A stretch of 64,000 bases of DNA from Promethearchaeota archaeon (GCA_019894855.1 JAGXNS010000001.1:3966-67965), one strand, 5' to 3'. Numbered from the stretch's first letter, positions 6,019-29,491 are shown. Made by a program: numbers and translations. Notes: generated from the letters alone by a model not told the origin.

Positions 6019-6040
6019 CAATGTTTCTATTCTAAACTAA

Positions 6041-6970: not shown

Positions 6971-7059
6971 AACCTCTCTATTTTTTACTAATAAGTAAAA
7001 ATTAGTAACTAAGTATTTAAACAAAAAATTCATAAATTGAAAAACCCTAAAAAATAAGA

Positions 7060-7668: not shown

Positions 7669-7758
7669 ACTTCTCTCAATTTAGTTAGTTATGTGGGTGT
7701 AGAATTTTAATTATCACACAAACAATTAATTGAGCTTTTATAAAGAAAAATTAAATTT

Positions 7759-8859: not shown

Positions 8860-9038
8860 ACAATTTAGGTCGTTACAGATTATAAAAAAGAAAAATTAAA
8901 ATTTATCTATCGGATATTTTTTTTTTAAGTATTTATTTTTCAGTTTAAAACACTCACCTTCCTATCATTATCCACTCATACAAGATAAATATAATATAAT
9001 AATAATCCCTATCATTATGATTAAACCCAATTGGGACA

Positions 9039-9254
9039 TTAGTAATGAGGAAAGAAAGGCACCATAATTAATACTATACTAATTATTGCTATAAAAACGA
9101 CTAAGACCCATAATACAAGGATTTTCCCCCCTCCTTTTTCCAAGTCATCATAATTAAGTTCTACACCACAATTAGAGCAAAGGTCTTCCCTATCTCGAGA
9201 AATTAAAGTCATAGAGCCACATTCCGGGCATTTCACTCTTTCATTATTTGACAT
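9039..9254 (-). CDS. small zinc-ribbon protein with C-terminal TM anchor
   Basis: CPECGS-x13-CSNCG ribbon followed by the hydrophobic LVLWVLVVFIAIISIVLIMV. I prefer the start at ATG 9252-9254 (MSNNERV), because the upstream 51 codons of the track ORF are low-complexity. Confidence 0.5.
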   Translation of the reverse strand: MSNNERVKCPECGSMTLISRDREDLCSNCGVELNYDDLEKGGGKILVLWVLVVFIAIISIVLIMVPFFPHY

Positions 9255-9399
9255 ATTACATATATTTGAGTGAAGAATTATTAAACCTTTCTTTGATTGT
9301 AATTTGAATTTGAATGATAATTTTTTTTTAATACTTTTTCTTTTATAAGGATTTGATGAATATGAGAACAAAACAATATAATTATCAACTGATAAAACT

Positions 9400-9771
9400 A
9401 TGGCCAAAAATAAAAACGATATTTATATCCTTCGTAAACATCGCAAGCCAAACCGCACTTTTTTAATGTTTCTGGGGATATTAGGGTTCGTAGCAATAGT
9501 CGTGCCCTTTTTTGGATCAAACTTGCGCTATATGACGGGGACATTTTTCAAAACCATTTTTGTGAATGTAGGACAAATTTGTCTTACAATCGGGGGCGCA
9601 TTATTCGTAATAAACCTTCTAAAAATCTTCTTCCGCAAATTTAGCGTTAAGTCCATGATGTTTAGCTGTTTCTTGCTGTGGGTAGGGGCTTTTCTTACCG
9701 GAATCCCTTTCGAATTATTAGGGATAGCGATAGGAGGGACCCAACCACCCCAAGGATACCATTATTATTAA
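9400..9771 (+). CDS. small membrane protein
   Basis: 123-aa ORF with three or four hydrophobic helices, divergent from the zinc-ribbon gene. Confidence 0.4.
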   Translation: MAKNKNDIYILRKHRKPNRTFLMFLGILGFVAIVVPFFGSNLRYMTGTFFKTIFVNVGQICLTIGGALFVINLLKIFFRKFSVKSMMFSCFLLWVGAFLTGIPFELLGIAIGGTQPPQGYHYY

Positions 9772-9787
9772 AAAAAAGATTTTTTTT

Positions 9788-10012
9788 TTATCTAAAAATC
9801 CTGAAATACTTAAAACCAGTATCGAACCCACAAATCGCAATCAACACAAATGAGGCAACTATAACTCCTAGCATCTTATAACGAATCCTACCTCCACCCC
9901 AAATAGCTAATATAATACCGATTATGAGTCCTAAGATTCCAATGAGCGAACCAAAGGCAATCCAAAACTCAAAACCACTAATCACATCTTCGAAATAATC
10001 GTACAATACCAT
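9788..10012 (-). CDS. small membrane protein
   Basis: 74-aa ORF with two hydrophobic helices. No homology recognised. Confidence 0.35.
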   Translation of the reverse strand: MVLYDYFEDVISGFEFWIAFGSLIGILGLIIGIILAIWGGGRIRYKMLGVIVASFVLIAICGFDTGFKYFRIFR

Positions 10013-10367
10013 AACAGAAGAATTTGGTACTAATTATTTAAAGAAAAAAAAACAAACCTTACATTTTATGATGATGGTTCCAATTATTTGTCGTATTAAA
10101 AACTGTTCAATTAAAAAGAAAGGGTAGGAATTAAAATCCTAACCTTCCAAAAAAATAAATTAGGGTGTGTTCAAAGAATTGCAAGAGTAGAAACCAATTC
10201 CGTGCCTTTTAAATGAGATCAGTAGCCGTAATTTCTAATTTTTTTTTACCAAACGCTTTTTCCTTTATAAGCATCGATTTTTACCTTAAAGTAAAAATAA
10301 ATTTGCGGTGTTTTAACTGAAACAGATTGAAGAACTAGGCACTTGCCCTTCTTGCGAGTGCTCCTTA

Positions 10368-10634
10368 ATGATGTACAAAACAAATAACTACAAAAGATTC
10401 GTCAAATGCGATGCGTGCGGTGTTTCGTATCCAATCCCGAAGAAGGGAAAGATAAGTAATTCTGCGCTAGAATGTCCAAAAAGTAATTTTCCGCTTTTAA
10501 TTGTAGAGAGAACAAATCAGCCTGCGTATTTTTGGTCGGATCAACCGTGCTTTACCTGTATCGATTTCGATAAGTGCTCAAACGTAAAAATTCTCGTCTC
10601 GGAATTTAAAGAATTGCAGGTGTATGGCTATTAG
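10368..10634 (+). CDS. topoisomerase-type C4 zinc-ribbon protein (true start probably upstream of 10368)
   Basis: FVKCDACGVSYPIPKKG and ECPKSNFPLL...CFTC resemble tandem topo-IA-type zinc ribbons. The partner CPSC of the first ribbon is encoded in frame at 10344-10355, upstream of the first ATG (see findings). Confidence 0.5.
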   Translation: MMYKTNNYKRFVKCDACGVSYPIPKKGKISNSALECPKSNFPLLIVERTNQPAYFWSDQPCFTCIDFDKCSNVKILVSEFKELQVYGY

Positions 10635-11655
10635 TTCGCCCAGAAAATCCTTCGTTATTATTTCGCTCATCACCGGCCTCGCCATTATTGGAGTAATGTC
10701 TACTTATCCTCGTCCGGTATTGAGTGTGACAAGTCAAAATGACAACCCAAAGGCGAGTTCTGAGCAGAATTTAGTAGACAAAGTGTTTACTTTTCTAGCA
10801 CCTAACGACACATTGCAATTTGAAGACTTAAATTTGTTCGAAAAAGTCAATTATTACGTATTACTTGAGATCGTAACTCCTCACGATTGCGAAATCAACG
10901 TGACAATCGTCGATCCGGTATTAGATGTGTACGAAGTGTTCAATACGGAAGTAAATATTTCTCAAGACGACGATTGGTTCGAAGTTCCGTTCGGGACGGC
11001 GATGGCTGGAAATTACACTTTCATTGTTTCGGTTGCATGCGCACTTACCTTAAACTTGCATATAAAAATATCGTTTGACCCGGAAGTAAAGTGCTTGTAC
11101 GACGTGATATCGCCAAAATTTTTAGAACGAATGAAATTATATCAAGTGAACAAGTTCACCAACGGGATGGTGGTTGAGCATAACACCGTCTTTAAAACTG
11201 ATGTGTCCTACAAGTTTTACCTCGGAAGAGTTTCGGCAATTGGGGGGTTAACTGTTGAAAATGAAATTAGAGTGGATTACGACGTGACCGATCCTAACGG
11301 GCTTGAGTTTACAATCTACCAAAACAAAACCGTAGGAAGCGTTGGTACGATTATGCACTTCGACTTCGGAACCGCTACGGAAGGAATTTACACGGTTAAA
11401 ATTCGGATTCACTGCCAAGTTGATGTAGTAAACATTGCTTATGCCATCGCTGAAGATTATCAAATTAGCACCATTAACAACGGAACTGACCCCGAAACTG
11501 AACCAACCGCAAATGAAACTGCGAGTGGTTACTTCTATGTGCCGATGGAGTGGACTCTCGCTTTTGGGCTCTCTGCCGGAGGATTATTGGCTATATTGGT
11601 GGTTTTTGGGGCGGTAAGACGGAAAAAGGACTCAGTCAGCTTGCGGACCAATTAA
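10624..11655 (+). CDS. membrane-anchored extracellular protein
   Basis: N-terminal signal/anchor FVIISLITGLAIIGVM, many N-x-S/T sequons, and a C-terminal TM plus basic tail (LLAILVVFGAVRRKKD). It overlaps the previous gene by 11 nt. Confidence 0.6.
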   Translation: MAISSPRKSFVIISLITGLAIIGVMSTYPRPVLSVTSQNDNPKASSEQNLVDKVFTFLAPNDTLQFEDLNLFEKVNYYVLLEIVTPHDCEINVTIVDPVLDVYEVFNTEVNISQDDDWFEVPFGTAMAGNYTFIVSVACALTLNLHIKISFDPEVKCLYDVISPKFLERMKLYQVNKFTNGMVVEHNTVFKTDVSYKFYLGRVSAIGGLTVENEIRVDYDVTDPNGLEFTIYQNKTVGSVGTIMHFDFGTATEGIYTVKIRIHCQVDVVNIAYAIAEDYQISTINNGTDPETEPTANETASGYFYVPMEWTLAFGLSAGGLLAILVVFGAVRRKKDSVSLRTN

Positions 11656-11656
11656 C

Positions 11657-11683
11657 TTTTTTTATTTTTATTTTTTTCTCTTT
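11657..11683 (+). terminator. oligo-T tract after the stop codon
   Basis: TTTTTTTATTTTTATTTTTTTCTCTTT begins 2 nt after TAA 11653-11655. Archaeal termination commonly uses T-runs. The AT-rich background weakens the call. Confidence 0.3.
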
Positions 11684-11853
11684 AAAAAGATGCTTGAAGC
11701 CTATTTTTTGGAGAATTTTTATGGACCAAGTAGAAAAGTTGTTGAATCTCTCTTATTTTACAATGATAAATCTAACCTTGGCTCAAAAGGTCTCGAAGAG
11801 ATAATAAATATAAGTAAGTAAAAATATTATTATGTTAGTATAATAATGTATAC

Positions 11854-12153
11854 TTGTATACAAAAAAGGTGATATTTATTAGTACAGTAAGGATTGATAA
11901 AAAACATTTAAAATTGTTGGATAAACTGATTTCTCATCTAACATTACGAGGAAATAAAGTAAGCAAAAAGGCTCTTGTAGCAAAGTTGATTGAGGATGCA
12001 ATGATGGCTGAAGGTATTGAAGAAAATGAAATTTCAGGATCAATAACTGATGATCACGCATGGAAAGGATTAGATGATGTTTTTGAGTTAGGCATTGAAG
12101 GTTTATCTGAAAACGTCGACGAAATTTTATATCAGTTAAATGGGGAAGAATAA
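11854..12153 (+). CDS. ribbon-helix-helix antitoxin (VapB-like)
   Basis: VRIDKKHLKLLDKLISHL...SKKALVAKLIEDA is an RHH pattern with an acidic tail. The gene abuts the PIN gene. The start is uncertain (TTG 11854 or GTG 11869). Confidence 0.6.
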   Translation: MYTKKVIFISTVRIDKKHLKLLDKLISHLTLRGNKVSKKALVAKLIEDAMMAEGIEENEISGSITDDHAWKGLDDVFELGIEGLSENVDEILYQLNGEE

Positions 12154-12565
12154 AATGGCTGTTTTTTTAGATACAGGATTTATATTAGCAATCAAGAACA
12201 AGGATGATAAAAATTTCCAAACTGCTCAATCTTGGATGAGGAGGTTTCTAAAAAATGAATTCGGAGAGATATATACATCTACATTAGTGTTTAATGAATT
12301 GGTGACCTTAGCATTGGTAAGAATAAAACGTCCTGATTTTGCGACGAATTTGGGAAATTATATTTTGAAGAGTAGAAGGATTAAGCTTATCAGTCTTACT
12401 GATGATGATTTTAAGAATTCTTGGGAGCTCTTTCAAAAATATAAGGAAAAAAGATTATCTTTTACTGATAGCACTATTTTAACTCATTGCAAACGGTTAA
12501 ACTGCAATTTTTTAGCTACTTTTGATAAACACTTTAAAGGTTTAATACCCTCAAATTTAAGTTGA
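12140..12565 (+). CDS. vapC: PIN-domain ribonuclease toxin
   Basis: MAVFLDTGFILA (first acidic residue), FNELVT, FTDSTIL and LATFDKHF are the PIN-domain acidic blocks. ATG 12155 (2 nt after the antitoxin stop) is an alternative start. Confidence 0.8.
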   Translation: MGKNKMAVFLDTGFILAIKNKDDKNFQTAQSWMRRFLKNEFGEIYTSTLVFNELVTLALVRIKRPDFATNLGNYILKSRRIKLISLTDDDFKNSWELFQKYKEKRLSFTDSTILTHCKRLNCNFLATFDKHFKGLIPSNLS

Positions 12566-12629
12566 GAGTACTATTAAGAGTAGCTATTTTATAAAAAACT
12601 ATAAAAAAGTATTAAAAAAAAATAAAGAT

Positions 12630-13775
12630 TTAAGCGCTCAAAAGAGCTTTGGCATTCGTTTGCCATTCGTTAATCATTTTAGAAGAGATTCCGCTGATTT
12701 TGGAAGCAAGTTGTTCGGGATCAGAATCTAATAAAGCTTCAACTGATGTAATACCGCTTTTAGCGAGATTTTTTGCTGTTCCGTCCCCGATGCCTTTAAC
12801 GTCTACTAAAGCATATTCTTCTGAATCAACAGTATTATCACATCTTTCGAGTTCTTGAACTTCTTCTTCATATAACGCTTCTACTTCGAAATTTAACCCC
12901 TTTGCTTCGGGAACTTCTCCTTTCTCGGTGTCGGCAATACCTACACTTGTAATAAAGAACTCCGCTTCTTCTGGTGGTAGATCAGGGGCGTCTACTATAA
13001 TCGCTCTTCGTTTTAATGAGCTATTGGAAGAAAATCCCTTAGTTTTGAACATTACGCGAAAATGGCAGCCGTGAGCGACGATATTACCTCCAATGGCGTC
13101 GTTCGCAGAGAACATACCCATAATCTTAGTCGAGACTTGATTCGTAAGTAAAACAGCGCAATTGTAAGTTTCTGCAACTCGCGAGAGCGCGTGGATCATG
13201 TTGTTGAGAACGCCTTGTCGACGGGCTAACATGCCAATACCAACGTATTCACTCCTTAACAAAGCCATTAAGCTGTCTACTACGATGAGTCGTACGTTTC
13301 TCGTCTTACATAAGGTCTCTGCTTTTTGAATCATCTGAGATTGGTGATCAGAACTGTATATCCTTGCGTGAAATATTTGTGAAAGAACCTTTTTTGGATC
13401 AAGTTCAAATCTCTTGGCGATTCTTTTGATCTTTTCTTTAGCAAATGTGTTTTCAGTGTCAATGTAAGCTACTGCAGAACCTAAGCCTCCCTTTTTTCTT
13501 GGAAGTTGGATTGTCACAGCAATCGTGTGAGCTAAATTTGTTTTTCCGCTTTTAAACGGACCATATACCTCGGTGAGTTTTCCTGTTTGGAATCCACCGC
13601 CCAATATTCTGTTTAGCTCAGAAGAACCAGTAGTAATGTACTCGGTGTTTTCATCTATTTCTTCTGCTGTTATGAACTCGGTCATACCTAACGCATTTCT
13701 GGCATTCCAAATCAATTTCTTCGCTGTCTTATCTCCTAGTCCATCTATCTCCGATATGATGTTATGTGGAGACAT
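12630..13775 (-). CDS. radA: RadA recombinase with extra C-terminal (HhH)2 domain (N-terminus probably extends to about 13865)
   Basis: Walker A GPFKSGKT. YIDTENTF, LIVVDSLMALLRSEY, LLTNQV and IGGNIVAH align block by block with archaeal RadA. See findings for both termini. Confidence 0.9.
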   Translation of the reverse strand: MSPHNIISEIDGLGDKTAKKLIWNARNALGMTEFITAEEIDENTEYITTGSSELNRILGGGFQTGKLTEVYGPFKSGKTNLAHTIAVTIQLPRKKGGLGSAVAYIDTENTFAKEKIKRIAKRFELDPKKVLSQIFHARIYSSDHQSQMIQKAETLCKTRNVRLIVVDSLMALLRSEYVGIGMLARRQGVLNNMIHALSRVAETYNCAVLLTNQVSTKIMGMFSANDAIGGNIVAHGCHFRVMFKTKGFSSNSSLKRRAIIVDAPDLPPEEAEFFITSVGIADTEKGEVPEAKGLNFEVEALYEEEVQELERCDNTVDSEEYALVDVKGIGDGTAKNLAKSGITSVEALLDSDPEQLASKISGISSKMINEWQTNAKALLSA

Positions 13776-14309
13776 CGCCAGCGCTTCCGCCGTGCTAATT
13801 CCACTTTCCTGAAGGAGTTTAATTTGTCGAGCGTTGATTGACTTTACCTGGTCTAAGTCTGAAATTTTTTACTATCAACTCCTATTTTTAATTTGAGATT
13901 ACATCCCTTTAGAATCATCTACTTATAAAGAAAAAAATGGTATATAATTTCAACTATTCAGAAAAAATAGGATTGAAAATTCTAACTCTTTTAACGAAAT
14001 TGGAAAATATAATATAGAAATAGCATTAAGATCTTTTTAAATCCCCATGTTGCTTAATATCTTTACACACTTCTACTAAATGTTCAAAAAGAACTTCTCG
14101 GGTCCACTTAGGTAGTTCTAAATTTATTTTTTTTAATTGTTCTGCTAATTTTCTCATGCAATTACCCGATCTTCGATATATAATCACAATAAGAAAGAAT
14201 TTCTTTAAAGAATTAATTCAAAAATAGCTTGTTTGTATCAAAGTTATGGAAAAGCGGATAATGCTAATATTTATAAATAGAATATTCGATCTCATTAATC
14301 TCTCCCAGC

Positions 14310-14705
14310 TTATTTGTTTTCACTTGCTTTCAATTCTTTTTCTAGTAATTTAATTTTGTTATCAATGTCCTTCGTTTTACTTTTCTTTTCTCTTTCAATT
14401 GCTTTAATGTTCTGGTCAAAGATTTTTTCCTTCTCTTTTATCAAGGAGTTGTATTCTGCTTCCAATTTCTTTGTAATAGAAAGTAATTCTTTCTTTTTTG
14501 CAGTTAATTCATTAAGATTTTTGAGGATTTCGTTTAATTTGGTTTGTTGATGAAGCAACTGTTCCCCAACATCCCTAATTCGAGGATCATACTCCTCATC
14601 ACATTTATTTGTAAAGTAGGTTTTTTTGTGTAACGCTATCTGCTCCACTTTCTCAATTTCTACTGCTATCTTAGTAATTTTATTACTAAGTTCTTCATCT
14701 GACAT
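14310..14705 (-). CDS. coiled-coil protein
   Basis: 131 aa, Lys/Glu-rich with heptad-like periodicity throughout. Confidence 0.45.
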   Translation of the reverse strand: MSDEELSNKITKIAVEIEKVEQIALHKKTYFTNKCDEEYDPRIRDVGEQLLHQQTKLNEILKNLNELTAKKKELLSITKKLEAEYNSLIKEKEKIFDQNIKAIEREKKSKTKDIDNKIKLLEKELKASENK

Positions 14706-14821
14706 TGTGACTTTCTTTGTTTTATTTATACTATTTATGAATCATAATTTAATTATACTTACTATAGAATTGAGATTCAAATCAATATAAATTATGTGGT
14801 CAATTATGATTCTTCTTTTCC

Positions 14822-15208
14822 CTAAAAACCTTGATCAACGTACATAGATAGTTCTTTTAAAAAATCTTTAGGGGCGATGCCGTGAGTCAAAATTTTGTGC
14901 CACATCTTCACATTCTGTAAATGAAAGGTCGAGTTGCCTGCGTCTAACTGCTCTGCAAATTCTATGACCATATCGTCAATAGAAAACTCGGATTTATCGA
15001 ACTGTCCGAAATATCCTCCAAAAGCAAAAAAAAGGTTTACGATCATCTCAACGTCTTCCTCAGAGAATCGTTCTCGGCAAGCCTTGCAGATTACTCCAAG
15101 TTTTAAGCTCGATTGATACAATTCGTGGCGATCTTTAATGTCAACTCGACAAATAGAACATCTTATCTGATTAGAAATTTTTGAATCGGGAGTGTTAATC
15201 ATAGTCAA
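14822..15208 (-). CDS. zinc-ribbon protein, AFGGYFG family (paralogue of 43922..44308)
   Basis: CSIC-x17-CKAC followed by FSEEDVEMIVNLFFAFGGYFGQ. It has the same length (128 aa) and motif order as the ORF at 43922. Confidence 0.6.
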   Translation of the reverse strand: MTMINTPDSKISNQIRCSICRVDIKDRHELYQSSLKLGVICKACRERFSEEDVEMIVNLFFAFGGYFGQFDKSEFSIDDMVIEFAEQLDAGNSTFHLQNVKMWHKILTHGIAPKDFLKELSMYVDQGF

Positions 15209-15276
15209 AATACTTATAAAACAGAGCTATTTAAAGGAAAAGGAAAAATCGGCCAGCATAATTTTTGCTTTATATA

Positions 15277-15400
15277 ACGACTTAATACTAAACTAAAGAA
15301 ATCCCTCTTTCTACGAGCTCGCATTTAATATCTCTTGAAAATTAATTGCCCCAAGATGTGAGTTTCATCCGCTTAGTATAATCCACACCAATTCTGTCAT
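15277..15400 (-). pseudogene. decayed copy of the 3' end of the RecA-paralogue gene at 18364..19074
   Basis: The minus strand reads ...TKRMKLTSWGN*FSRDIKCELVERGISLV*, against ...TKRMELLSRNKQITSELKYEILDRGISLV* in the intact gene. There is an in-frame stop at 15342-15344. The DNA alignment is given in the findings. Confidence 0.6.
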
Positions 15401-15412
15401 TAATGACAGAAT
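15391..15412. repeat. perfect 22-bp palindrome ATTCTGTCATTAATGACAGAAT
   Basis: Read directly: the sequence equals its own reverse complement. It lies at the inner edge of the left direct repeat, about 200 nt upstream of the radical SAM gene. Confidence 0.9.
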
Positions 15413-15614
15413 CCTAATTACTCTAACTCGAATAATATCCAACCTTTTAAATTGTTAGAAAAGTGCACCTTAAAGCTTTAAAAGCATCATTTTTTCTTAT
15501 TTTGTAATCCTAATGGCATAAAGCAATTTTTCAATAGATATGCATTGTGGATGGAAACATTTAATAATTTAATTCATAATTTGTTATTCAATAAATTAAA
15601 TCCAATTTAAAGAT

Positions 15615-16718
15615 ATGCCAAGCATTACTTCTCTAATATCTCAAAGAATCAAACCCTCTTGTGCTGTATGGGAAATTACACTAAAATGTAATAGTAATTG
15701 CATTCATTGTGGATCAAAAGCGGGAAAAACTCGTCTTGATGAACTAAATACCGAAGAATCTTTAAAATTAGTTAGGGAAATCCATGATTGTGGTTATAAA
15801 GGAGTTGCTTTAATGGGAGGAGAACCATTAATTAGAGAGGATTGGTATGAAATTGCGAAAGAAACCAAAAAAAATAAGCTAGAATTATCAATTGTTACTA
15901 ATGGAATAACTTTAATTGATAACATTCAAAAATTAAAAAGCCTAAAAGTTGACTGCGTATCGTTAAGTTTAGATGGAGGGTCTGCTAAAGTCCACGATTA
16001 TCTTAGAGGTATTCCAGGAGCATTTGAAAAAACACTAAATGCGATTAACAGGCTAAAAGAAGAAAAATTACCGGTCAGTGTAATTACAGCAGTAAGTAAA
16101 ACTAATTTAAATGAACTAGTTAAAATAAAAAACATCTTATTAGATCGAAATATTGCTTGGCAAATTCAGATGGCAATCCCTATTGGACGCTTTCCAAGAG
16201 AATTAACGATTTCGAGAGAGGAATTTTACACTGTAGCATTATTCATTGCTATAAATGTTAAAAAATATTCTTATAAAAGATTGCCAGTTATTGGTGCCCA
16301 TTGTTTCGGCCATTTTTCAAGGTTCATACCAAATTTAGGATTGGATCCATGGGTGGGATGTCAAGCGGGAAAATCAGTTTTAGGCATTCAGAGTAATGGA
16401 AACATTAAAGGATGTTTAACGCTCTCAGACGGATATATCGAAGGAAATATTAGAACACAGAGTTTGAAAACGATTTTGGAAAAGATAAGGTTAAAACAAA
16501 AACAGTTAAAAGGTTATTGCGTAGATTGTGATTTGGCAAATACATGTCGGGGAGGATGTTTGGGAACTGCTTATGCATTAAAAGAATTTGATGAGCCTTA
16601 TTGTCTAAGAGCAATCGAAAATAAATTGTTTTCTTCGAAACAATTACCAATTAAAGGAAAATTGGATTCAACAATTTCAATATTAAAAAATCTGTATCAT
16701 AACATAATATTCAAATAA
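15615..16718 (+). CDS. radical SAM enzyme with C-terminal SPASM domain
   Basis: CNSNCIHC (Cx3Cx2C) at the N-terminus. GCQAGKSVLGIQSNGNIKGC and CVDCDLANTCRGGCLG form the SPASM auxiliary-cluster pattern. Confidence 0.85.
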   Translation: MPSITSLISQRIKPSCAVWEITLKCNSNCIHCGSKAGKTRLDELNTEESLKLVREIHDCGYKGVALMGGEPLIREDWYEIAKETKKNKLELSIVTNGITLIDNIQKLKSLKVDCVSLSLDGGSAKVHDYLRGIPGAFEKTLNAINRLKEEKLPVSVITAVSKTNLNELVKIKNILLDRNIAWQIQMAIPIGRFPRELTISREEFYTVALFIAINVKKYSYKRLPVIGAHCFGHFSRFIPNLGLDPWVGCQAGKSVLGIQSNGNIKGCLTLSDGYIEGNIRTQSLKTILEKIRLKQKQLKGYCVDCDLANTCRGGCLGTAYALKEFDEPYCLRAIENKLFSSKQLPIKGKLDSTISILKNLYHNIIFK

Positions 16719-16752
16719 TCTAATAATAAAATTGAATGGAGGTATCTTAAAA

Positions 16753-17001
16753 ATGTTAGAAAAATTTTTTCAATTGAATAAAATCGGAAAAGAGTTAGGA
16801 TTAAGTAAGAAAGAAATAAATAAGGTACTAATATTTGGCAATCGTAAACATACTTTATTATACAAGAGCCTATTGATAATATCATTTATTTTTTTTGGCA
16901 TCATAATAATAATATTAGGATTAGAAGCCTCTAGAAATACTTATGCAGCAGGAACTTTCTATTCTACTGTGAAAATAAAAGACTTTAATAAAAAAAAATG
17001 A
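16753..17001 (+). CDS. small single-pass membrane protein
   Basis: GGAGGT at 16738-16743 lies 9 nt before ATG 16753. One TM (LLIISFIFFGIIIIILGL). The stop overlaps the next start (ATGA). The track start TTG 16732 is less likely. Confidence 0.55.
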   Translation: MLEKFFQLNKIGKELGLSKKEINKVLIFGNRKHTLLYKSLLIISFIFFGIIIIILGLEASRNTYAAGTFYSTVKIKDFNKKK

Positions 17002-18344
17002 AGCTTAATATCGGTTGCGGAAAAAAATACGATCCCGATTATTGTAATATTGATTTATACGAAGATTTAGTGGCTGATAGACTCATGTCAGCTTTTAACC
17101 TTGAATTTGATGACAATACTTGCGATGAAATTAAAGCGATTCATATAATTGAACACTTAAGTTTTTTTGAAACTATTTATGCTCTTAGTGAATTTTTTAG
17201 AGTATTAGAACCTAATGGGAAGTTAATCCTTGAAACTCCTGATCTCGAAAAAACTTGTAAACATTATTTAAAAGCAAACGAAGAACAGAAAAAAGAGATA
17301 TTGGGATGGTTTTTTGGAATACCTCATAAAGGATTGCAACACAAGATTTGTTTTCCTCCTTACTTATTAAGTGAACTATTATCCAATGCGGGATTTAGAA
17401 ATATTTCCACAGTATTCTATTATAACAATGAATCTATTCCTTCTGTTAGATTTCAATGCAAGAAACTTGATGAAGGCTATTCTCTTAAAATTTTTCAAAT
17501 CATAACAAAAATCCGAAAGACGATGCTCGATAAGAATTACATTGATTTTACTGATTCGTTTATTATAAAAGAGCAAGAGGATTTAATAGCAAAATTTGCG
17601 TTAGAATTATTAAAATTAGAGAAAAACGATAAAAAAGAAAAAGTTCTTGAAGTATTAACTGATATTTTAATAAAATCGCCCCAATTCGCTAAATTCTTTA
17701 TAGAAGCAATAGAATATAAAGATCTTCTTTCCGGGAACGAAATAAAATTAATTCTTAAGACAACTGAATTATTAGTTGATTTGAATTTTCCTAACATTTT
17801 ATTAAATTCTTTGAAAAAAGGACCACTTAAACCAGGAACCCAAAAAATTATTTTTCCTTCAATTGAATCGTTTGCTAGAAGTATTATAACGAAATTAAAT
17901 CAATTCGAAAAAAATCGGGACGAAATCACAGAGAAATTAAAAGGTCTATCTGATAATAGTAAGGAAATTGAAATCAACTTTTTTTCATTCACCCTAATTA
18001 AACAAAAATCGTTGGACTATTACTACAAAGGGATTAAGGCATTTTATGTAAAAAATTACAAGATGGCATATAATAAATTTTTAAAAGCCATACGACTATA
18101 TAGGGACGATTTATTTTATTATTGGAATCTAGCGAAAGTATTAGCTAAATTAGAATTAGAAGATCAAGCGATAAAATTCTATAAGTTAACACTGAGATTT
18201 TTAAGGTTACAAAAGATTCAATATAAAGATGAGATTAAACTTGATATTAAAAATGAATTACACTGGGTAAGAAGTAAGCAAGGACCGACCCCTAAATTTG
18301 AACCAATAATCTCATTTGAAAAATATCACAAGATTAGTATATAA
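16998..18344 (+). CDS. class I SAM-dependent methyltransferase fused to a helical/TPR-like C-terminal region
   Basis: LNIGCGKK (motif I), IKAIHIIEHL and LEPNGKLILETP (Methyltransf_11/23-like). The C-terminus has TPR-like AYNKFLKAIRLYRDDLFYYWNLAKVLAKL. Confidence 0.75.
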   Translation: MKLNIGCGKKYDPDYCNIDLYEDLVADRLMSAFNLEFDDNTCDEIKAIHIIEHLSFFETIYALSEFFRVLEPNGKLILETPDLEKTCKHYLKANEEQKKEILGWFFGIPHKGLQHKICFPPYLLSELLSNAGFRNISTVFYYNNESIPSVRFQCKKLDEGYSLKIFQIITKIRKTMLDKNYIDFTDSFIIKEQEDLIAKFALELLKLEKNDKKEKVLEVLTDILIKSPQFAKFFIEAIEYKDLLSGNEIKLILKTTELLVDLNFPNILLNSLKKGPLKPGTQKIIFPSIESFARSIITKLNQFEKNRDEITEKLKGLSDNSKEIEINFFSFTLIKQKSLDYYYKGIKAFYVKNYKMAYNKFLKAIRLYRDDLFYYWNLAKVLAKLELEDQAIKFYKLTLRFLRLQKIQYKDEIKLDIKNELHWVRSKQGPTPKFEPIISFEKYHKISI

Positions 18345-18363
18345 AGCTTTTCACGATTTAATA

Positions 18364-19074
18364 CTAAACTAAAGAAATTCCTCTATCTAGGATTTCGTAT
18401 TTCAATTCGCTTGTGATCTGTTTGTTTCTCGACAGGAGTTCCATCCGTTTAGTCTTGGTGTTAAATGGTTTCGATAAACAAACATTTACGCTGTTGATCC
18501 TCGAATACAACTTGTTAAAAAACGGTTGATTCTTCCCTAATGCAGGAGAGAAAGAGACCTCGTGTATCAGAATTAGAAAGATTTCTTCCCTTAGACAACG
18601 CATAATGAGGGGAAACAGTTGCGAACTGAAAAATTCATCTAAAATCGCCTTTTTTTGCTTGAAATTGGAGCAACTAGAGGCAGCAAACCTTAAGTGATGC
18701 GAAATGTTGTCGATTACTAAAAATTTGGTGTTGAAGGGTAATATGACGCTTCCTAAGGTTGCTAAAAAGGTTGATTGATCTTCGTAACTCAAAAAGGGAG
18801 ACGTCACTGGATATAAAAAGATTTTTTTCACGAGGTTGTCGAACACGCCAGGAGAATTTTTAAAAAAAGTATGCAAACGCTTTTTAGGAAATTGCTCGCT
18901 AGCTTGAATCCAGACGCAATGATCTTCAGCACCTTCACAATTCATAGAAGACGCAACCATCTGGAGTGCTAAGGTCGTTTTGCCGGTGCTCGATTCTCCC
19001 GAAACCGAGATTATTCTTCGTTCCTTTAATAAATCAAACAATGATGAAATATTGGAAGGATCGCTTGGCTCCAT
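18364..19074 (-). CDS. RecA-superfamily ATPase, RadA paralogue (RadB/aRadC-like)
   Basis: Walker A SGESSTGKTTLALQM and Walker-B-like FLVIDNISH. At 236 aa it lacks the HhH domain. Confidence 0.7.
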   Translation of the reverse strand: MEPSDPSNISSLFDLLKERRIISVSGESSTGKTTLALQMVASSMNCEGAEDHCVWIQASEQFPKKRLHTFFKNSPGVFDNLVKKIFLYPVTSPFLSYEDQSTFLATLGSVILPFNTKFLVIDNISHHLRFAASSCSNFKQKKAILDEFFSSQLFPLIMRCLREEIFLILIHEVSFSPALGKNQPFFNKLYSRINSVNVCLSKPFNTKTKRMELLSRNKQITSELKYEILDRGISLV

Positions 19075-19080
19075 CGTGTT

Positions 19081-19434
19081 TTAATCACTGCTCAATAGGT
19101 CTAACACTTCTTTTTGAGTTTTATCAATTGCTTCATCTCGTTTTCGAGATTTTTCGGATATCACCTGAGAGGCGCTGTTGTTCCCGGTGTTGTTTGTTGT
19201 GAGCTGTTGGAGCATCATCAGAGCAATTAAATCGTCTAATCGACTATCCTCGTGTGATTGACTTCCGCTGAAAAAAGCACCGAGTAGTCCATTCCCGCTT
19301 TTTTTCGCTTTGTAAACAAAATATATTACCACACCAATTCCAATTATGACTACCGTGTAGAACGGTTCTTTCTGGTAGAACATCAGCATAGCGACTATTA
19401 TCGCAATTAAGCAAAATCCTTTCATATTTACCAT
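19081..19434 (-). CDS. small membrane protein
   Basis: Two N-terminal TM helices and a polar tail. It overlaps the upstream gene by 7 nt and ends 6 nt before the RecA-paralogue gene. Confidence 0.45.
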   Translation of the reverse strand: MVNMKGFCLIAIIVAMLMFYQKEPFYTVVIIGIGVVIYFVYKAKKSGNGLLGAFFSGSQSHEDSRLDDLIALMMLQQLTTNNTGNNSASQVISEKSRKRDEAIDKTQKEVLDLLSSD

Positions 19435-20195
19435 TGCACCTCCCTTTCGTTTGGGTCTTTTACGTGTTTAAACCTTCTTTTTCGAGTGAGAAATTTTGGA
19501 CTCGCTACCTGAACTTTTCCCATTTTTTTTGCTATCCCTTTAATGCTTTTCCCAACTATCCAAAACGCTCCTTTCAACGCAAAGTAGAAAGAAGTTAGAA
19601 TCAAAAAATATGCGATATAATAAAGCACTTCAAAGGGAAGGACGAAGATATATAAGTCTACAAACATCCAAATTAACGCTCCTGATAACACCAGTAGAAA
19701 AATCTGGTAGATTGAATAGCGAGGGTCTCTTTTGAAGGAGTAACCAACGACTTTGACATCTTGTCCGGAAGGTTCTAATCCGATGAGAAGCGATCCCGCG
19801 AAAACAAACGCTACCACTTTAACCAATAACAAGGTCTGTATGTTAAAGATTAAGTCTAAACAGAACATAAATAAGAAAGTGGACACCAACATAGGAGCAA
19901 AAGCAACCACAAAGATTTGCAACACGGAATTTCTCTCCGATTCGGGGTTCTCGATCGATCCATGAGGGGCTACTTCTCCTCCGATTTCGCTCCGGAATTT
20001 CACCCGGAACTTGCCTGGCTTGACACCTAATAAAATCGCCATGGTATAATGCGCTGTTTCGTGAATAAATACTCCGACGAAGGCTATGACGTTAAATACC
20101 GCTTTATATCCGGGAGTATGGGCATAGCGGTAGAATACTTGGGCTATCATCGAACACCCTAGCATAACGAAAAGCCAAAAATACAATTCAATCAT
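19428..20195 (-). CDS. polytopic membrane protein with HExxH motif (putative zinc metalloprotease, DUF3267-like)
   Basis: FIHETAHYTMAILLG lies in the second hydrophobic segment, with five or six TM helices overall. Confidence 0.5.
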   Translation of the reverse strand: MIELYFWLFVMLGCSMIAQVFYRYAHTPGYKAVFNVIAFVGVFIHETAHYTMAILLGVKPGKFRVKFRSEIGGEVAPHGSIENPESERNSVLQIFVVAFAPMLVSTFLFMFCLDLIFNIQTLLLVKVVAFVFAGSLLIGLEPSGQDVKVVGYSFKRDPRYSIYQIFLLVLSGALIWMFVDLYIFVLPFEVLYYIAYFLILTSFYFALKGAFWIVGKSIKGIAKKMGKVQVASPKFLTRKRRFKHVKDPNEREVQW

Positions 20196-20866
20196 GATTA
20201 TATCTTTGCTATTACAGGAATGTATTTAAAAGAAAAATTTAATGTCAAAAAAAATGCTAATTTAACTCTTTCTTTGATCTCCTCAATAAACTAATCATTA
20301 TTTTTAAGCGGTGTTTAAAAAGAAATTTATGGATAAGATAAATGTAAGAATAAAAGTGAGTTTCAATAATGAACTTTCAACGGGAGACTTAAGAAAAGTC
20401 GAAGATAATTAATCTGACTTCAAGTATTTACGAAAATTATCTTTATTTCAATTGAGTCTTAAATCTATTATTATTATTAATATATTCAGATTGAAAGTGA
20501 AATGAAGACAGATATTAAATCAAAATCTCCATTAAAAATCTCTTCATATTCCCAATTTAGGCTGTAACCCCTACGCCTGCGATTCAAAAATTCTCCTCGT
20601 TCGGAATAAAATTGCAAAATTGTGATTTTGATGAAAAAACATATACATAATCTTCTTTTTATAGAATGTTATCACACTAATTCATGAATATTTTAAAGTT
20701 TATTCAACCATTCTGCTTCAATTTTCGCTAACCATTTGATTATATCCCATATTTTTAGAGATTTTTCATAAAACCATATCTTCAAATACCAAACTGGTGA
20801 TCTTAATTCTTTGTAATTAAAAGTAATCGATATTTTTCAAAAAAATTATAAAAAAGTTGGAAAAAA

Positions 20867-22138
20867 ATGGCAACAACAAAAAATATTGATAAATCAAAAT
20901 CAAAGATTCCTATATTTGATCCATTTTACCAGTGTGATATATGTGGATCACAGGATATTGTGGAAACCCAAGAAGGATTTACTTGCCGAGAGTGTGGGAT
21001 AGTATTAGAGGCACAAAAGTTAGAATATCATAGACCTTACGACGCTGATGTGGTTCAACATGCGGTATTAAATAAAACTCAGATGGGTTTTAAATCCGAA
21101 AGGCGCAAATCACAATATTCTGCCAAGTTAGAAGGGCTTAGTCGGATTGACGCATCGCGTTCAACTGAGGAAAATGTCCTAATCGCAGCCAAGGTAGAGA
21201 TTAAAAGGATATTAACCGCTTTGGGTTTCTCACTTAAAGATTTTGATGTGATTTTATGTAAATTTAAAGAGAATCGCGCTCAATTAGGTAAGGGCACTAA
21301 ATACAGGAGTGCTGAAATGTTGGTTCCTTGTGTGATCTATGCTTACTACAAAGAAAATAACAAGCCCATTCGCGAAAAGGACCTTTTAGAGGTCTCAAAA
21401 ATTTCAAAGAAAGACTTTAACGCGTTTAAATTTTCGATTATTCGCATCTGGCCAGAATACCAAGAGCGGGATCGCAAGCAATACATAATCGAACGAATTT
21501 TAGAAGTGAGCGAACACTTTAAATTAGGCATGCCATTTTACTACCAATCACGACGCATACTAAACAGGTTTTATGATTCTATTAAAAACACAAAAGACGA
21601 TGTTATCGTTGGTTTAGTGACTTCTATTACTCTCCTCTGCTCCCAAAAAAAAGAAGTGAGCGTATGTGCAATTTGTGACCGATTAGGGATAAAGATGTCA
21701 ACGATTCATAGGCAAGTAGAGAGGAGAGTCATTCAAAGATTTAACGTTCCTGGATTTAAAACCCTTGTAAAATCGGCGAAATTGTTAAGAAAAGTTATGC
21801 AAAAATTAGGTGTGCTCGATCAGGGTTTTGTAGATCCAATTGAAGTTTCGAAAACTACGCTTGAAAATGACGATATAGTTCAAGTAGTACTGGGAAACGC
21901 GAGTCAAGTTTTTAACTCCCTAAATGGGAGTGAGGAGCATTTTCTTTTTGTAAAAGAAGCAAGCGGGTATTTACTTGCATCCATTACTGATAATCTAAAT
22001 AATCTTAACACTAATCACAACCTCAACTTTAAGGAATATAATGGTTCAGATAAAAACGAGAGATATAACGATCAGGAGCCGGTAAAAGTAGAACTATGGA
22101 AATTTTACAACCCGAAAGGGCCACCCGTGCTTTGTTGA
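20867..22138 (+). CDS. tfb: transcription initiation factor B (TFIIB homologue) with a long C-terminal extension
   Basis: N-terminal ribbon CDICGS-x13-CRECG, then cyclin-fold-like repeats. At 423 aa it is about 100 aa longer than typical TFB. Confidence 0.75.
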   Translation: MATTKNIDKSKSKIPIFDPFYQCDICGSQDIVETQEGFTCRECGIVLEAQKLEYHRPYDADVVQHAVLNKTQMGFKSERRKSQYSAKLEGLSRIDASRSTEENVLIAAKVEIKRILTALGFSLKDFDVILCKFKENRAQLGKGTKYRSAEMLVPCVIYAYYKENNKPIREKDLLEVSKISKKDFNAFKFSIIRIWPEYQERDRKQYIIERILEVSEHFKLGMPFYYQSRRILNRFYDSIKNTKDDVIVGLVTSITLLCSQKKEVSVCAICDRLGIKMSTIHRQVERRVIQRFNVPGFKTLVKSAKLLRKVMQKLGVLDQGFVDPIEVSKTTLENDDIVQVVLGNASQVFNSLNGSEEHFLFVKEASGYLLASITDNLNNLNTNHNLNFKEYNGSDKNERYNDQEPVKVELWKFYNPKGPPVLC

Positions 22139-22363
22139 CGATGAGTTTTGACTGATTGTATATTTTCTTAAATTTTTTTTCTCTTTTTCTATGATTTGCG
22201 ATAATAATCCATTATCCTTTACTTTTCTTTTTTCATTGGACATAAATACAAAGGTAACTTTGGAAAATATTAATGATTTTTTAGCTAAATTTATGCTTTT
22301 TTCTTTATAAACACTCGGTATATGGGGAATACAAAGCTTATAATGCACTTTGCGTGAAGAATC

Positions 22364-25327
22364 ATGAAATGGAAAAACCCCCGAGTTTTAGTTAGTGTTG
22401 TTTTAATTGTAGTTTTAGTTTATTTATCTGCAATAAGTATAAAATCTGTTGCATATTCTAATGAAGGACAAAACGAGAATTTCGACCTGTTGGGAACCTC
22501 TGATATCTCGAACTTAGAGATTTTGCAGTCAGTTTTTGAAGCAAAGAACGCTGATTACAATACTTACGGCTATTACCCTCAGATTTACTCTGATTCTCTT
22601 CAGGCGACTTATTACGCGCTATACATCTTAGAGGCTATAGGGAAATTGGGCGATATTGACCAACAAGCGGTAACTGACTACATTTTGTCTTTTTACAACT
22701 CCAGTTCCCATATTTTCTCGGACGAAAACGCTCAAAGATACTTCGCTTCAAAAATTCCGGGGAGATATTATCCTTTGTCAACGCTTTTACAAGTTAATTG
22801 CTACGCGGTGCTTTCACTGGAAATCTTGAATAGCATCAATTTAATAAACATTGTTGATATGATAACCTTTATTTGGGATTGTTATCACCCTAACCTTCAC
22901 GGATTTATAGGTCAACCTTATGATAACTCTTTAGAAGAAGGATTTAAAATTCCTACTGCAGACAATACTTATTTCGGAGTCATTACTTTAGATACTTTAG
23001 GTGTTGACTGGAACTCACATGCTCTGGAACGAGATGATATTGTATCCTACATTGACAGCCTGCAATCTTTGAGTTCATCTACTGGCTTTTACAACGATAA
23101 CGAGGGCATGTTCGACTCCTTAAAGGAGCCAGAACCTAACCAATTTGCTTCTTATTATTGCGTTAAAACGTTAGAGACCTTTGGAAGTAGTTATGTAGAT
23201 GTAATAGATAAAAACAAATTTTATCAACACCTAACAGCGCTTTATCATCCTCAAGAAGGATATTTTGACCTCTCGGATAGCGCAATGATCAACTATTCCA
23301 ACGTGGTAGCAACTGCTATGAGCTTAGAACTGGCAGATATAACCGAGTTTGTTAATTTTGAGAAAAACGATGTTTTAACCTTTATATTTAAGAATCGAAA
23401 CCATCGTGGGGGGTGGGTAGGTTCCAGTTCAATCTCCTTTCAGGAATTGCTTGACACATTCCAAATAATAAGGTCGCTTTCGAACACGGGAGATATTGCA
23501 GTTTTAACTTTAAGCGATAGAGACGAAATTTCTTCGTTCATATCTCTATTTGTTCAAGAACATGGATATTCCTTACTTTCAGACGATTATGCGTCTGTAG
23601 ACTTAATATATACTATTGTTTCGTCATTCGATCATTTTGATAAAATCGGCGAACTCGATATTCAAGAGGTATATGATCTTTTGTGTGGAACTGTTGTAGA
23701 TTACGGTACGAAGTACAATATCTTTTCTTGCACCGGTTTAGATTTAAGTTTGGTAAAGTTTCGTTCCAAGCCTTTCGATTATTTTACTACCGGATACCAC
23801 GATTATGTTGAAGACATTAACTCCCTCGTCTCCCACGAAACAACGTTTAAAATACTCAATACCTTAGATAAGATATTCAAATTAAACGATTTTGCCTCGA
23901 TTATTGACCTAAATCGGGTATTGCAGGATGTAATTAATTCCCAATTCCTTGATCCGTCCTATACCGATAATTTTGGGGCTTTTTTGGTCCAGAATATATT
24001 GTCATCTTCCGAGTGGAAAAACGATCTGGTCTACCTGAAGTATTCTTACTACGCTATACAGACGATGGAAACTATTAGCCAATATTTAGGATTAGGGGAC
24101 ATCACGAGTCAGTATTTCGCTGATTTGGGATTCGACAAATCCGCGCTTGGAACATACATTACGAGAAACATAGTTGAAACTCCAATCGAGGTATTCTTTG
24201 ATGCTAAATACTCAGATAACGTAGAGTTAGCATTAGAGAATTTGTATTACACGATACACATTTTAAACGCTATTGATCAATTCAGTTTGGATATAACTAA
24301 AATTAGTAATTTCGTAGTAAACCACCTTAACTATTCGAACATAGAAAATCTTTATTATTCCTACAAAATTTCGGAATATTTGGATTTGAATATTAATTTC
24401 AATGTTGAGCAAACCCATTTGCTTGTTCAAAATATATACTCTGAAACATACAATGAATTTTACACGACCGTTGAGAGAAAAGAGCTGGATCACGATGTGT
24501 TCTTGTGGTTGTGTGAAATCGCAAAAACTGACGATGTAAGATTGAGCGTTTCTTATTATGATACTATCGGATTAGGAAGTAACAACTTGTTTACGGTCGA
24601 ATTGGTAAACCTCATCCTATCGGATTTTGGACAATATACTACGGTTAAACTCGAGTCGGTACATTTAGGAACTATCGTATTGGATCAATTGGGGAACTAT
24701 ACCTATCAAAAGGAAGTATATGTGCCTATTGATACAGCTAATTTTCCGATTGTGGAAGGAGAGTTATGCGTATACGACGGCGCTATAAAAAAGGGAAGCG
24801 TTCCTTTCTCTTTTACCACCGAATTTAATTCTCAGTTTACATATTCAATAGTAAAGACCGAATCTCGGATTGAAGTTAACATCTATGCAAACCACGAGTT
24901 TATTTCTGGAGACGAACCGATCTTCGGTGGCTTGATGTACGCCAATGTGTATCGAAGCGGTAATCAAGTTGATATTATGGACCTGATTACTTCTCACAAC
25001 TTAGATAGCTCGACATTTACCTTCGATTATTCACCAATTTATTTCGGAAACTATTCGTTTGAATTCTACCTTAACGATCCTTATCACTCCGATCCCCAGT
25101 TAATCTGTTACGCTACATTTGACTACGAAGATCCTAACACTAATCCTGATCCCGACCCAAATCCTGATCCTGACCCCGATGACGATCCTAATAACCTATA
25201 CCAAGGAGACGCTGCCGTGACCATTCCTTTAGCGCTGGGGATGGTAGGCGCCGCTACGATACCCTTATTTGGTACTTATAAAGCGGTTCGTTCGAAAAAA
25301 TTCAAAAATAAGCAACTATCAAAATAG
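22364..25327 (+). CDS. large surface protein with repeated alpha/alpha-toroid (prenyltransferase/terpene-cyclase-like) motifs
   Basis: N-terminal anchor VLVSVVLIVVLVYLSAISI. Ten or more repeats of the type QATYYALYILEAIGKL / ASYYCVKTLETFG / YSYYAIQTMETI. Asp/Pro/Asn linker, C-terminal TM and basic tail. Confidence 0.55.
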   Translation: MKWKNPRVLVSVVLIVVLVYLSAISIKSVAYSNEGQNENFDLLGTSDISNLEILQSVFEAKNADYNTYGYYPQIYSDSLQATYYALYILEAIGKLGDIDQQAVTDYILSFYNSSSHIFSDENAQRYFASKIPGRYYPLSTLLQVNCYAVLSLEILNSINLINIVDMITFIWDCYHPNLHGFIGQPYDNSLEEGFKIPTADNTYFGVITLDTLGVDWNSHALERDDIVSYIDSLQSLSSSTGFYNDNEGMFDSLKEPEPNQFASYYCVKTLETFGSSYVDVIDKNKFYQHLTALYHPQEGYFDLSDSAMINYSNVVATAMSLELADITEFVNFEKNDVLTFIFKNRNHRGGWVGSSSISFQELLDTFQIIRSLSNTGDIAVLTLSDRDEISSFISLFVQEHGYSLLSDDYASVDLIYTIVSSFDHFDKIGELDIQEVYDLLCGTVVDYGTKYNIFSCTGLDLSLVKFRSKPFDYFTTGYHDYVEDINSLVSHETTFKILNTLDKIFKLNDFASIIDLNRVLQDVINSQFLDPSYTDNFGAFLVQNILSSSEWKNDLVYLKYSYYAIQTMETISQYLGLGDITSQYFADLGFDKSALGTYITRNIVETPIEVFFDAKYSDNVELALENLYYTIHILNAIDQFSLDITKISNFVVNHLNYSNIENLYYSYKISEYLDLNINFNVEQTHLLVQNIYSETYNEFYTTVERKELDHDVFLWLCEIAKTDDVRLSVSYYDTIGLGSNNLFTVELVNLILSDFGQYTTVKLESVHLGTIVLDQLGNYTYQKEVYVPIDTANFPIVEGELCVYDGAIKKGSVPFSFTTEFNSQFTYSIVKTESRIEVNIYANHEFISGDEPIFGGLMYANVYRSGNQVDIMDLITSHNLDSSTFTFDYSPIYFGNYSFEFYLNDPYHSDPQLICYATFDYEDPNTNPDPDPNPDPDPDDDPNNLYQGDAAVTIPLALGMVGAATIPLFGTYKAVRSKKFKNKQLSK
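25135..25195 (+). repeat. in-frame low-complexity Pro-Asp/Asn coding repeat
   Basis: It encodes NTNPDPDPNPDPDPDDDPNN through reiterated CCT/CCC-GAT/GAC/AAT codons. It is a stalk-like linker before the C-terminal anchor. Confidence 0.8.
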
Positions 25328-25334
25328 TAAATAA

Positions 25335-25373
25335 TTTTTTTCTCTTATTTTTTTCTCAAATTTTTTCTTTTTA
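25335..25373 (+). terminator. T-rich tract after the stop codon
   Basis: TTTTTTTCTCTTATTTTTTTCTCAAATTTTTTCTTTTTA follows TAG 25325-25327. Confidence 0.3.
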
Positions 25374-25397
25374 TTACTATGATAAATATAAGCTGTA

Positions 25398-25973: not shown

Positions 25974-25986
25974 AGGGGACCGAGAT

Positions 25987-28209: not shown

Positions 28210-28212
28210 TTA

Positions 28213-28737: not shown

Positions 28738-28744
28738 ATAAATA

Positions 28745-29005: not shown

Positions 29006-29057
29006 ATTTTATTGATTTTTACACGGTAAAATTAAGAGAAGTATTTAATGAAAAATT

Positions 29058-29345: not shown

Positions 29346-29457
29346 TATAATATGCTTACGAATCCTTTACATAAAAAGGAAAAATTTACCTATGGGAAAT
29401 CCATTGCGGAAATTTAAATTCCGCTTCTCATATTAGTGATGTAAGCTAACAAAAGTA

Positions 29458-29484: not shown

Positions 29485-29491
29485 CTGATAT

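Follow-up and report, generated by a model that had tools for sequence, protein, structure and literature searches.

A gene cassette bringing a replacement gene end into the 3′ end of a Lokiarchaeon RecA-paralogue gene

The 3′ end of a gene for a RecA-family paralogue in Promethearchaeota archaeon (GCA_019894855.1, JAGXNS010000001.1:3966-67965) carries an inserted DNA segment of 3,076 bp (15378-18453), which is bracketed by two unequal copies of the tail of that same gene. Positions are counted from the first letter of the window, the whole 64,000-nucleotide (nt) stretch that we analysed. The segment, placed in the last 90 nt of the gene and called the cassette here, consists of a substitute gene tail, a methyltransferase gene, a gene for a small membrane protein, a gene for a radical SAM/SPASM enzyme and a conserved non-coding block of ~175 nt (Table 1). 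Homologues of the RecA paralogue are labelled Lokiarchaeota or Promethearchaeota by their sources, and the host of the window is a Lokiarchaeon. The product of the target gene is best described as a RadB-like RecA-family paralogue: it aligned over its full length with the NCBIfam RadB model TIGR02237 (E 3.5e-10) at 40 bits, which does not reach the cut-off of 172, its nearest solved structures are Rad57 and RecA, and its Walker regions are Rad57-/RecA-like. The gene is kept in many contigs of Lokiarchaeia, always after an M50-like gene and a gene for a protein of 114-117 amino acids (aa), and its housekeeping neighbours encode FEN1, an OB-fold protein, RadA, helicases and a TFB-like protein.

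An alignment of 15277-15377 to 18353-18453 without gaps gave 74 identities over 101 positions, divided into 25/26 in the first 26 nt and 49/75 in the remaining 75 nt, with a perfect 21-mer common to both copies (15282-15302 and 18358-18378); the hand count in a preliminary description of this DNA was thereby reproduced exactly. In a blastn self-comparison of the 64-kb window at E ≤ 1e-3, which that description had proposed, the repeat pair was the sole non-self match (E 1.1e-8), and the 21-mer occurred only twice in the window even when up to three mismatches were allowed (chance expectation 0.03). The right copy is the genuine 3′ end of the open reading frame on the minus strand, ending in TKRMELLSRNKQITSELKYEILDRGISLV-stop. 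Read in the same frame, the left copy gives TKRMKLTSWGN-stop-FSRDIKCELVERGISLV-stop, with an in-frame TAA at 15342-15344 and the original stop retained at 15288-15290. Past 15377 no homology of the left copy to the gene was detected, the local alignment score being equal to the shuffle mean. The frame translation agreed with the earlier view that a functional gene end stands on the right and a stop-interrupted tail on the left, and the comparisons support the description's reading of the repeat as a gene 3′ end present in duplicate on either side of an inserted segment. Neither the window nor any of the fetched loci contained the repeat outside the RecA-paralogue locus, so that a scattered intergenic element was not found. 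An origin by chance match or from a common intergenic repeat element, for which only the AT-rich composition of the window would speak, is refuted by the E value of the sole self-match, by the in-frame reading of the left copy as a gene tail, and by the conservation of the repeat together with the cassette in relatives and its absence from cassette-free ones; we give it practically no weight.

We then compared contigs carrying close homologues of the RecA paralogue, all of them from metagenome assemblies. The cassette was present at this locus, with both sides visible, in four lineages, namely the window itself (WIN), L001/L002/L006 (87% protein identity), L008 (84%) and L014 (81%). All four carry the repeat, with copies 76-84% identical to each other, and no cassette without the repeat turned up at this locus in any contig long enough to show it. 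The junctions are alike in every lineage, with GTGAAAAGCTT after the right copy and GTGTGGATTAT before the left. This filled structure recurs in independent NCBI, JGI and ENA assemblies. The bracketed region is larger in L008 and L014, where a PIN toxin-antitoxin pair is added.

Six loci proved to be cassette-free, with a single tail (L010, L012, L013, L018, L036 and L037). The single gene end adjoins the ancestral intergenic region and the gene for the 128-aa protein in all of these except L037, where a gene for a 123-aa protein lies between; the RecA paralogue thus stands beside the homologue of 14822..15208 in relatives, the arrangement that the preliminary description had expected of an empty site. 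In L010, L012, L013 and L018 (77-57% identity), this homologue begins ~80-100 nt past the gene end and the repeat is absent. The sequence past the gene end in the cassette-free genomes (TATATAAAGCAAAAATT...TTTTCCTTTTCCTTTAAATA) is the one that follows the left copy of the window, and the left copy is therefore the tail in its ancestral context, the right copy being the one joined to the cassette. A metagenome scan for the core sequence yielded six loci, L036 among them; a scan of a genome collection with an alignment of the RecA paralogue gave eight distant loci among the matches listed. The gene body of L036 is 87% identical to that of the window at the nucleotide level, and a neighbour-joining tree placed L036 beside L014. 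Empty alleles accordingly occur inside the cassette-bearing crown clade (L036, L037) as well as outside it (L010, L012, L013, L018). Thus, 15378-18453 is an insertion relative to empty alleles and includes a substitute tail that leaves the target gene intact, while the left copy is the displaced tail. Close relatives are polymorphic at this locus for gain or loss of the segment; the polymorphism is old and common to several lineages rather than an event private to this genome.

L037 and L001 form an empty/filled pair. Positions 1-1271 of L037 match 9449-10719 of L001 at 95.4% identity, rising to 100% over the final 95 nt up to the 18-nt stretch ACTAAACGGATGGAACTC; past it, the match of L037, now at 90.8%, is to the left copy of L001 and to the genes that follow. 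Compared with L037, the filled allele has an extra 3.15 kb, running from the right tail to the non-coding block. The two loci are near-isogenic, and the breakpoint lies in ACTAAACGGATGGAACTC, at the gene-internal edge of the repeat. Between left and right copies this stretch is identical in L001 and differs by 2-3 mismatches in WIN, L008 and L014. In L001 the two copies have no longer perfect match than this one, and the coincidence of the breakpoint with it fits homologous recombination. Assembler k-mers are commonly longer than 18 nt, and collapse during assembly is therefore unlikely to have made the empty contigs.

The preliminary description had proposed site-specific integration into a gene 3′ end with the perfect core as the mark of the crossover. 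The inserted segment, the duplicated gene end and the empty sites all stand; the core does not. We rejected the 21-mer as the crossover site, since the L001/L037 breakpoint lies at the opposite end of the repeat and the 21-mer is conserved in cassette-free outgroups. At the single gene end of cassette-free relatives it is identical in L018 and L036 and has two mismatches in L010, synonymous positions included. Because these gene ends keep the 21-mer almost equally well, its identity between the two copies needs no recombination and reflects conservation of a stretch that codes for ISLV-stop and lies near the next promoter region.

L001 and L037, and no other locus, share a gene of ~620 nt for the 123-aa membrane protein directly after the tail (after TAGTATTA; L001 13868-14540, L037 1267-1960). 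It supplants part of the ancestral intergenic region and is followed by the homologue of the 128-aa gene. Present in a filled and in an empty allele, it represents another insertion at this spot, independent of the cassette.

Table 1. Features at the cassette locus, in window coordinates.
Feature	Position	Strand	Remarks
128-aa Cys-rich protein gene, ancestral downstream neighbour	14822..15208	-	tblastn 65-90% identity in relatives
Ancestral intergenic and promoter region of the 128-aa gene	15209..15276	-	TATATAAAGCAAAAATT...TTTTCCTTTTCCTTTAAATA; aligns with the sequence past the gene end in L010, L012, L018, L036
Left repeat, displaced tail, now a pseudogene fragment	15277..15377	-	joined to the ancestral intergenic region
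Perfect 21-mer, left copy	15282..15302		final codons (ISLV), stop, 6 nt beyond; partner at 18358-18378
Left repeat, counterpart of the 18-nt stretch	15360..15377	-	2 mismatches to the right copy in the window
Conserved non-coding block, inner left end of insert	15378..15553		89-96% nt identity among four cassette lineages
Radical SAM/SPASM enzyme, cargo	15615..16718	+	Pfam Radical_SAM 1.3e-27, SPASM
Small membrane protein, 89 aa, cargo	16732..17001	+	1-3 tandem paralogues in relatives
Methyltransferase with long C-terminal extension, cargo	16998..18344	+	Pfam Methyltransf_11/23; stop codon 8 nt from the right repeat
Right repeat, functional tail linked to the cassette	18353..18453	-	last 30 codons, stop 18364-18366, 11 nt after the stop
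RecA-family paralogue gene, RadB-like, 236 aa, insertion target	18364..19074	-	weak Pfam KaiC/Rad51/RecA matches
Right repeat, gene-internal edge	18436..18453	-	ACTAAACGGATGGAACTC in gene orientation; breakpoint region in relatives

The variable part of the repeat indicated that the left copy is more than the decayed duplicate it had first been taken for: in L001 and L014 it matches a tail still used by cassette-free relatives. In the variable 70 nt, the identity of both these left copies to the tail in functional use at L036 is 86%, against 70-77% to the right copy of the same locus. For L001 the left copy also resembles the L037 functional tail (~91% identity across 100 nt), and its translation equals the tail of P0020 except for the first residue. 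Open reading frames are retained in the left copies of L001 and L008. The left copy of the window, 69% identical to that of L001 (gene bodies, 89%), is of a third, more decayed type that is common to L008. Recent gene conversion between the copies was considered and rejected, as a left copy is no nearer to its own right copy than to the right copy of another genome.

If the copies stemmed from a target-site duplication, left by a transposase or casposase or by repair that filled in a staggered break, the exact flanking of the insert by direct repeats would be accounted for, and the two copies would have to have been identical at insertion. Against it, the variable parts of the L001 and L037 tails are ~70% identical despite flanks at 95%, and the left copy falls with the tails in functional use in empty genomes; moreover, at 101 nt the repeat is much longer than known duplications of target sites, the ends of the insert are not paired by an inverted repeat, and no transposase is present. 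We regard this origin as highly improbable, and the insert does not have the features that define a transposon or casposon with target-site duplication.

In the tree of gene bodies of the 47 closest homologues, proteins with the ‘B’ tail (..ELLSKDNKITSKLKYQILESGISLV) are interspersed with those having the cassette-linked tail. The bodies of P0002 and P0011 are 96.6% identical with tails at 66.7%, and those of P0003 and P0008 93.7% with tails at 70%; in the opposite direction, P0001/P0002 and P0001/P0003 combine bodies at 86% with tails at 97% identity (about 96-97% across the three). Tail identity is thus decoupled from body identity, in a tail that evolves fast and whose ‘types’ are partly a continuum. 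Tails that behave as diverged paralogous or allelic sequences at 73-81% identity, and the persistent reading frames in the left copies of L001 and L008, could also be the remnant of a tandem duplication of the RecA-paralogue gene, in which the cassette replaced the downstream body save its last 90 nt and empty alleles arose later by recombination between the copies. Such a history requires an exact replacement of 620 nt of gene body, and none of the outgroup or empty genomes has a second gene copy or any further fragment. Homology ends sharply at 15377, and the B-type tails are functional and conserved in several lineages sister to the cassette-bearing ones, for which alternative alleles are the better fit. 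We therefore hold a tandem duplication to be improbable.

The preliminary description had suggested comparing the cassette with its flanks in composition, and the cassette is indeed compositionally distinct. The GC content at third codon positions (GC3) of its genes is 0.21-0.23, the lowest in the window, against 0.39-0.45 in the immediate flanks. The synonymous divergence (dS) of the cassette is flat, 0.23-0.30 to each of L001, L008, L014 and L016, and does not follow host distance, since host-gene dS is mostly 0.34-0.42 to L001 and 0.54-0.79 to L008, L014 and L016. The cassette has a history of its own. Along the region, dS forms a mosaic, with 1.0-1.4 in the M50-like gene, 0.90 in RadA to L001 and 0.28 in p131 to L014; recombination among these lineages therefore seems common.

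The three genes that the preliminary description had placed between the repeats were all recovered, with the TPR part of the methyltransferase appearing as faint precomputed matches in homologues only. The radical SAM/SPASM enzyme has homologues at 57-95% identity across Asgard archaea, and its best NCBIfam matches, all below cut-off, are peptide maturases. Across Lokiarchaeia the operon (15615-18344 in the window) is kept as a radical SAM/SPASM gene, 1-3 tandem small paralogues (81-94 aa) and a methyltransferase gene; the small proteins are membrane-protein-like in appearance and share the C-terminal motif ..Y..GT.YSTVK.KDF. Judged from these domains and gene order, the operon resembles a module of the type that makes ribosomally synthesised and post-translationally modified peptides, or one that modifies proteins, and the cargo is probably a peptide-modifying radical SAM module. 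PADLOC assigned no defence system to the cassette beyond generic radical SAM/viperin similarity.

The same operon also occurs at unrelated loci, at 9046-12292 of L019 and 10001-13445 of L022. Around it at these two loci we found neither flanking repeats nor a fragment of the RecA-paralogue gene, the shared sequence being only 60 nt beside the start of the radical SAM gene. In L019 it adjoins two genes for Arf/Ras-family small GTPases. At the RecA-paralogue locus in the L008 lineage (L008 5658-9847; also L007 and L009), the island extends over 7.6 kb between the tail copies. Its extra cargo comprises an ABC/AAA_21 ATPase (PADLOC mad3-like, 3.6e-25), proteins of 253 and 202 aa and the PIN toxin-antitoxin pair; it also has a divergent methyltransferase (58% identity) together with a 35-codon remnant of the window-type methyltransferase gene. 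This content points to turnover of cargo inside the island.

The non-coding block lies between the left repeat and the promoter of the radical SAM gene and is missing upstream of the operon at the other loci. About 65 nt of it are invariant (core about 15449-15515), while the adjacent left repeat is 68-86% identical. Palindromes within the block are GTGCAC and GCTTTAAAAGC. The window also has a perfect 22-nt palindrome, ATTCTGTCATTAATGACAGAAT, at 15391-15412, separated by 13 nt from the left repeat's inner edge, which arises from a 6-nt insertion found in this genome only. An Rfam scan of 14000-20000 gave no match, and RNAalifold predicted a weak structure of the block with no compensatory pairs or covariation; on these grounds we do not claim a structured RNA. 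The block is a candidate regulatory site, recombination arm or small RNA.

We searched for an enzyme that could move the cassette. Pfam scans detected no integrase or transposase domain in the cassette open reading frames or in those of ≥110 aa across 342..36212, no recombinase domain was found in the scanned extra genes of the L008 island, and the precomputed Pfam tables of the other island versions listed none, in agreement with the earlier statement that no integrase is present. The cassette encodes no recombinase, and we infer that it moves by host recombination. In the explanation that we favour, at a probability of roughly 0.55, the repeats are an insertion scar, with host homologous recombination acting after a Campbell-type founding event. 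That event would probably have been one crossover of the gene tail with a DNA circle in which a 101-nt tail fragment lay beside the cassette; the junction of an excised circle would then read ...GTGTGGATTAT-ACTAAACGGATGGAACTC-(right-type tail)-TAGTATTAGATCGTGAAAAGCTT. Present-day loss, spread and allele exchange of the cassette may proceed by host homologous recombination between the tail copies and through the flanking genes.

Several observations weigh against this explanation. No single filled/empty pair sets the direction as gain or loss, and only two empty alleles in the crown clade are readable at the DNA level. Low GC3 and AT bias may somewhat depress the flat dS of the cassette. The left-copy type of the window (SW.N..SRD) has no functional counterpart among the 47 closest homologues. 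The right tails of L008, L014 and L016 are 81-87% identical to that of the window and so follow the host gene body and not the cassette with its flat 90-94%, because of which the linkage of tail and cassette is clear only for the WIN/L001/P0003 group. Finally, the junctions are the same in all lineages, yet left-copy types differ between sister lineages. Repeated crossovers at one short stretch are therefore needed, a pattern that suits a site-specific recombinase at least equally well.

Such a recombinase, of the tyrosine or serine type, would have acted in trans or have since been lost. The cassette with its right tail would then be the remnant or satellite of an element whose phage-type attachment site (attP) mimicked the gene 3′ end, with the crossover in or near ACTAAACGGATGGAACTC. 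The architecture (a replacement 3′ end, the native end displaced, and empty sites that are exact) is the hallmark of this kind of integration and has parallels in e14 at icd/icdC (PMC13626634) and in thaumarchaeal elements (PMC6563490). The accretion of cargo in the L008 and L014 islands (ABC/AAA_21 ATPase, PIN toxin-antitoxin pair) and the conserved block, placed at the inner junction just where an attP would have its arm sites, point the same way. On the other side, an integrase is encoded in none of the six island versions and in none of the ~15 kb on each side in the window. Scans of viral contigs returned no core sequence and no methyltransferase (0 each), and only 24-32% identical relatives of the radical SAM enzyme. 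The cargo is a conserved chromosomal operon that elsewhere stands without attachment-like repeats, and the putative core differs between the copies in WIN, L008 and L014. We rate a site-specific recombinase as the main rival, less probable than host recombination.

One further reading can be imagined. The cassette, substitute tail and ~175-nt block could together form an integrase-free mobile unit that passes between genomes of Lokiarchaeia as an excised circle and re-enters at the tail of the RecA-paralogue gene. We consider this unlikely. If true, the unit would perpetuate itself as a Campbell cassette with no need beyond host recombination proteins or a trans-acting enzyme binding the block, and through its spread a recombination-mediator-like protein would change between two forms of its C-terminus.

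Among the closest known systems is e14 of E. coli. Its excision joins the icd body to the displaced end (icdC), giving a functional variant (PMC13626634, citing Hill et al. 1989). As with e14 (and phage 21) at icd, the cassette is inserted in the 3′ end of a protein gene, supplies a slightly different substitute end, and leaves the displaced native end as a C-terminal pseudogene at its far side. In contrast, e14 is a 15-kb prophage with its own site-specific recombination system and SOS-induced excision, whereas the Lokiarchaeon insert is 3 kb long, carries a cellular-type operon and no recombinase, resides in an Asgard archaeon and has tails that diverge much more (73-81% nt identity). In Thaumarchaeota, 14 of 68 integrated elements lie in 3′-distal parts of protein genes (PMC6563490). 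These archaeal elements and proviruses likewise target gene 3′ ends, have direct repeats at their ends, can provide a new stop or gene end, and were delimited by empty sites in close relatives. Unlike the present insert, with its 101-nt repeat, conserved-operon cargo and lack of an integrase, they were detected via integrases or casposases and mostly have short attachment sites or duplications of the target site (PMC6563490).

HeimV1 and the aloposons belong to the same superphylum and are likewise integrated, cargo-bearing islands, differing in that their integration sites are tRNA genes and that they bring integrases or giant genes with them; none of the Asgard elements described so far was reported in a RecA-paralogue gene or without a recombinase (PMC8813620). 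The cassette has the structural features of elements that integrate into gene 3′ ends (end repeats, substitute end, empty sites) and lacks the element-encoded integrase that such elements carry. Presence/absence polymorphism, the absence of a mobility gene and a dS decoupled from that of the host recall flexible genomic islets. Those islets are exchanged by homologous recombination through conserved flanks and are normally intergenic, with no duplicated gene end. The Lokiarchaeon unit differs from them by including a duplicated substitute gene tail.

Other observations concern the surroundings of the locus. The M50-like membrane protein gene (19428-20195, minus strand) has dS values to all four relatives that are 2-4 times those of its immediate neighbours and represents either a hypervariable or a recombined allele. 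RadA (12630-13775, minus strand) consists of a Rad51 core and an additional C-terminal helix-hairpin-helix domain (HHH_5, residues 323-371). Its region was called as two open reading frames, the core and a 141-aa helix-hairpin-helix protein, in L010 (13061-14240) and L012 (11742-13011), which could reflect a split gene or a frameshift. Beside RadA, at 11854-12565 on the plus strand, a small antitoxin-like open reading frame overlaps a PIN-domain gene by a few bases; with a GC3 of 0.23-0.28, low like that of the cassette, this pair is probably another accessory insertion. A gene for an Arf/Ras-family small GTPase, as expected for an Asgard genome, is located at 2878-3546 on the minus strand.

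This locus provides a sequence-resolved case of gain and loss of a gene cassette in Asgard archaea, whose mobile elements and mechanisms of gene flow are poorly known. A conserved cellular operon relocates as a unit and enters a gene without destroying it; the gene survives because the cassette brings a spare gene end. A repeat that looks like a pseudogene can in turn be an alternative, still usable end of the same gene. If a trans-acting integrase exists, the conserved junction and the non-coding block are the sequences by which it may be found. If the cassette indeed has no recombinase of its own, it would be a simple model of how an operon spreads by host recombination alone.

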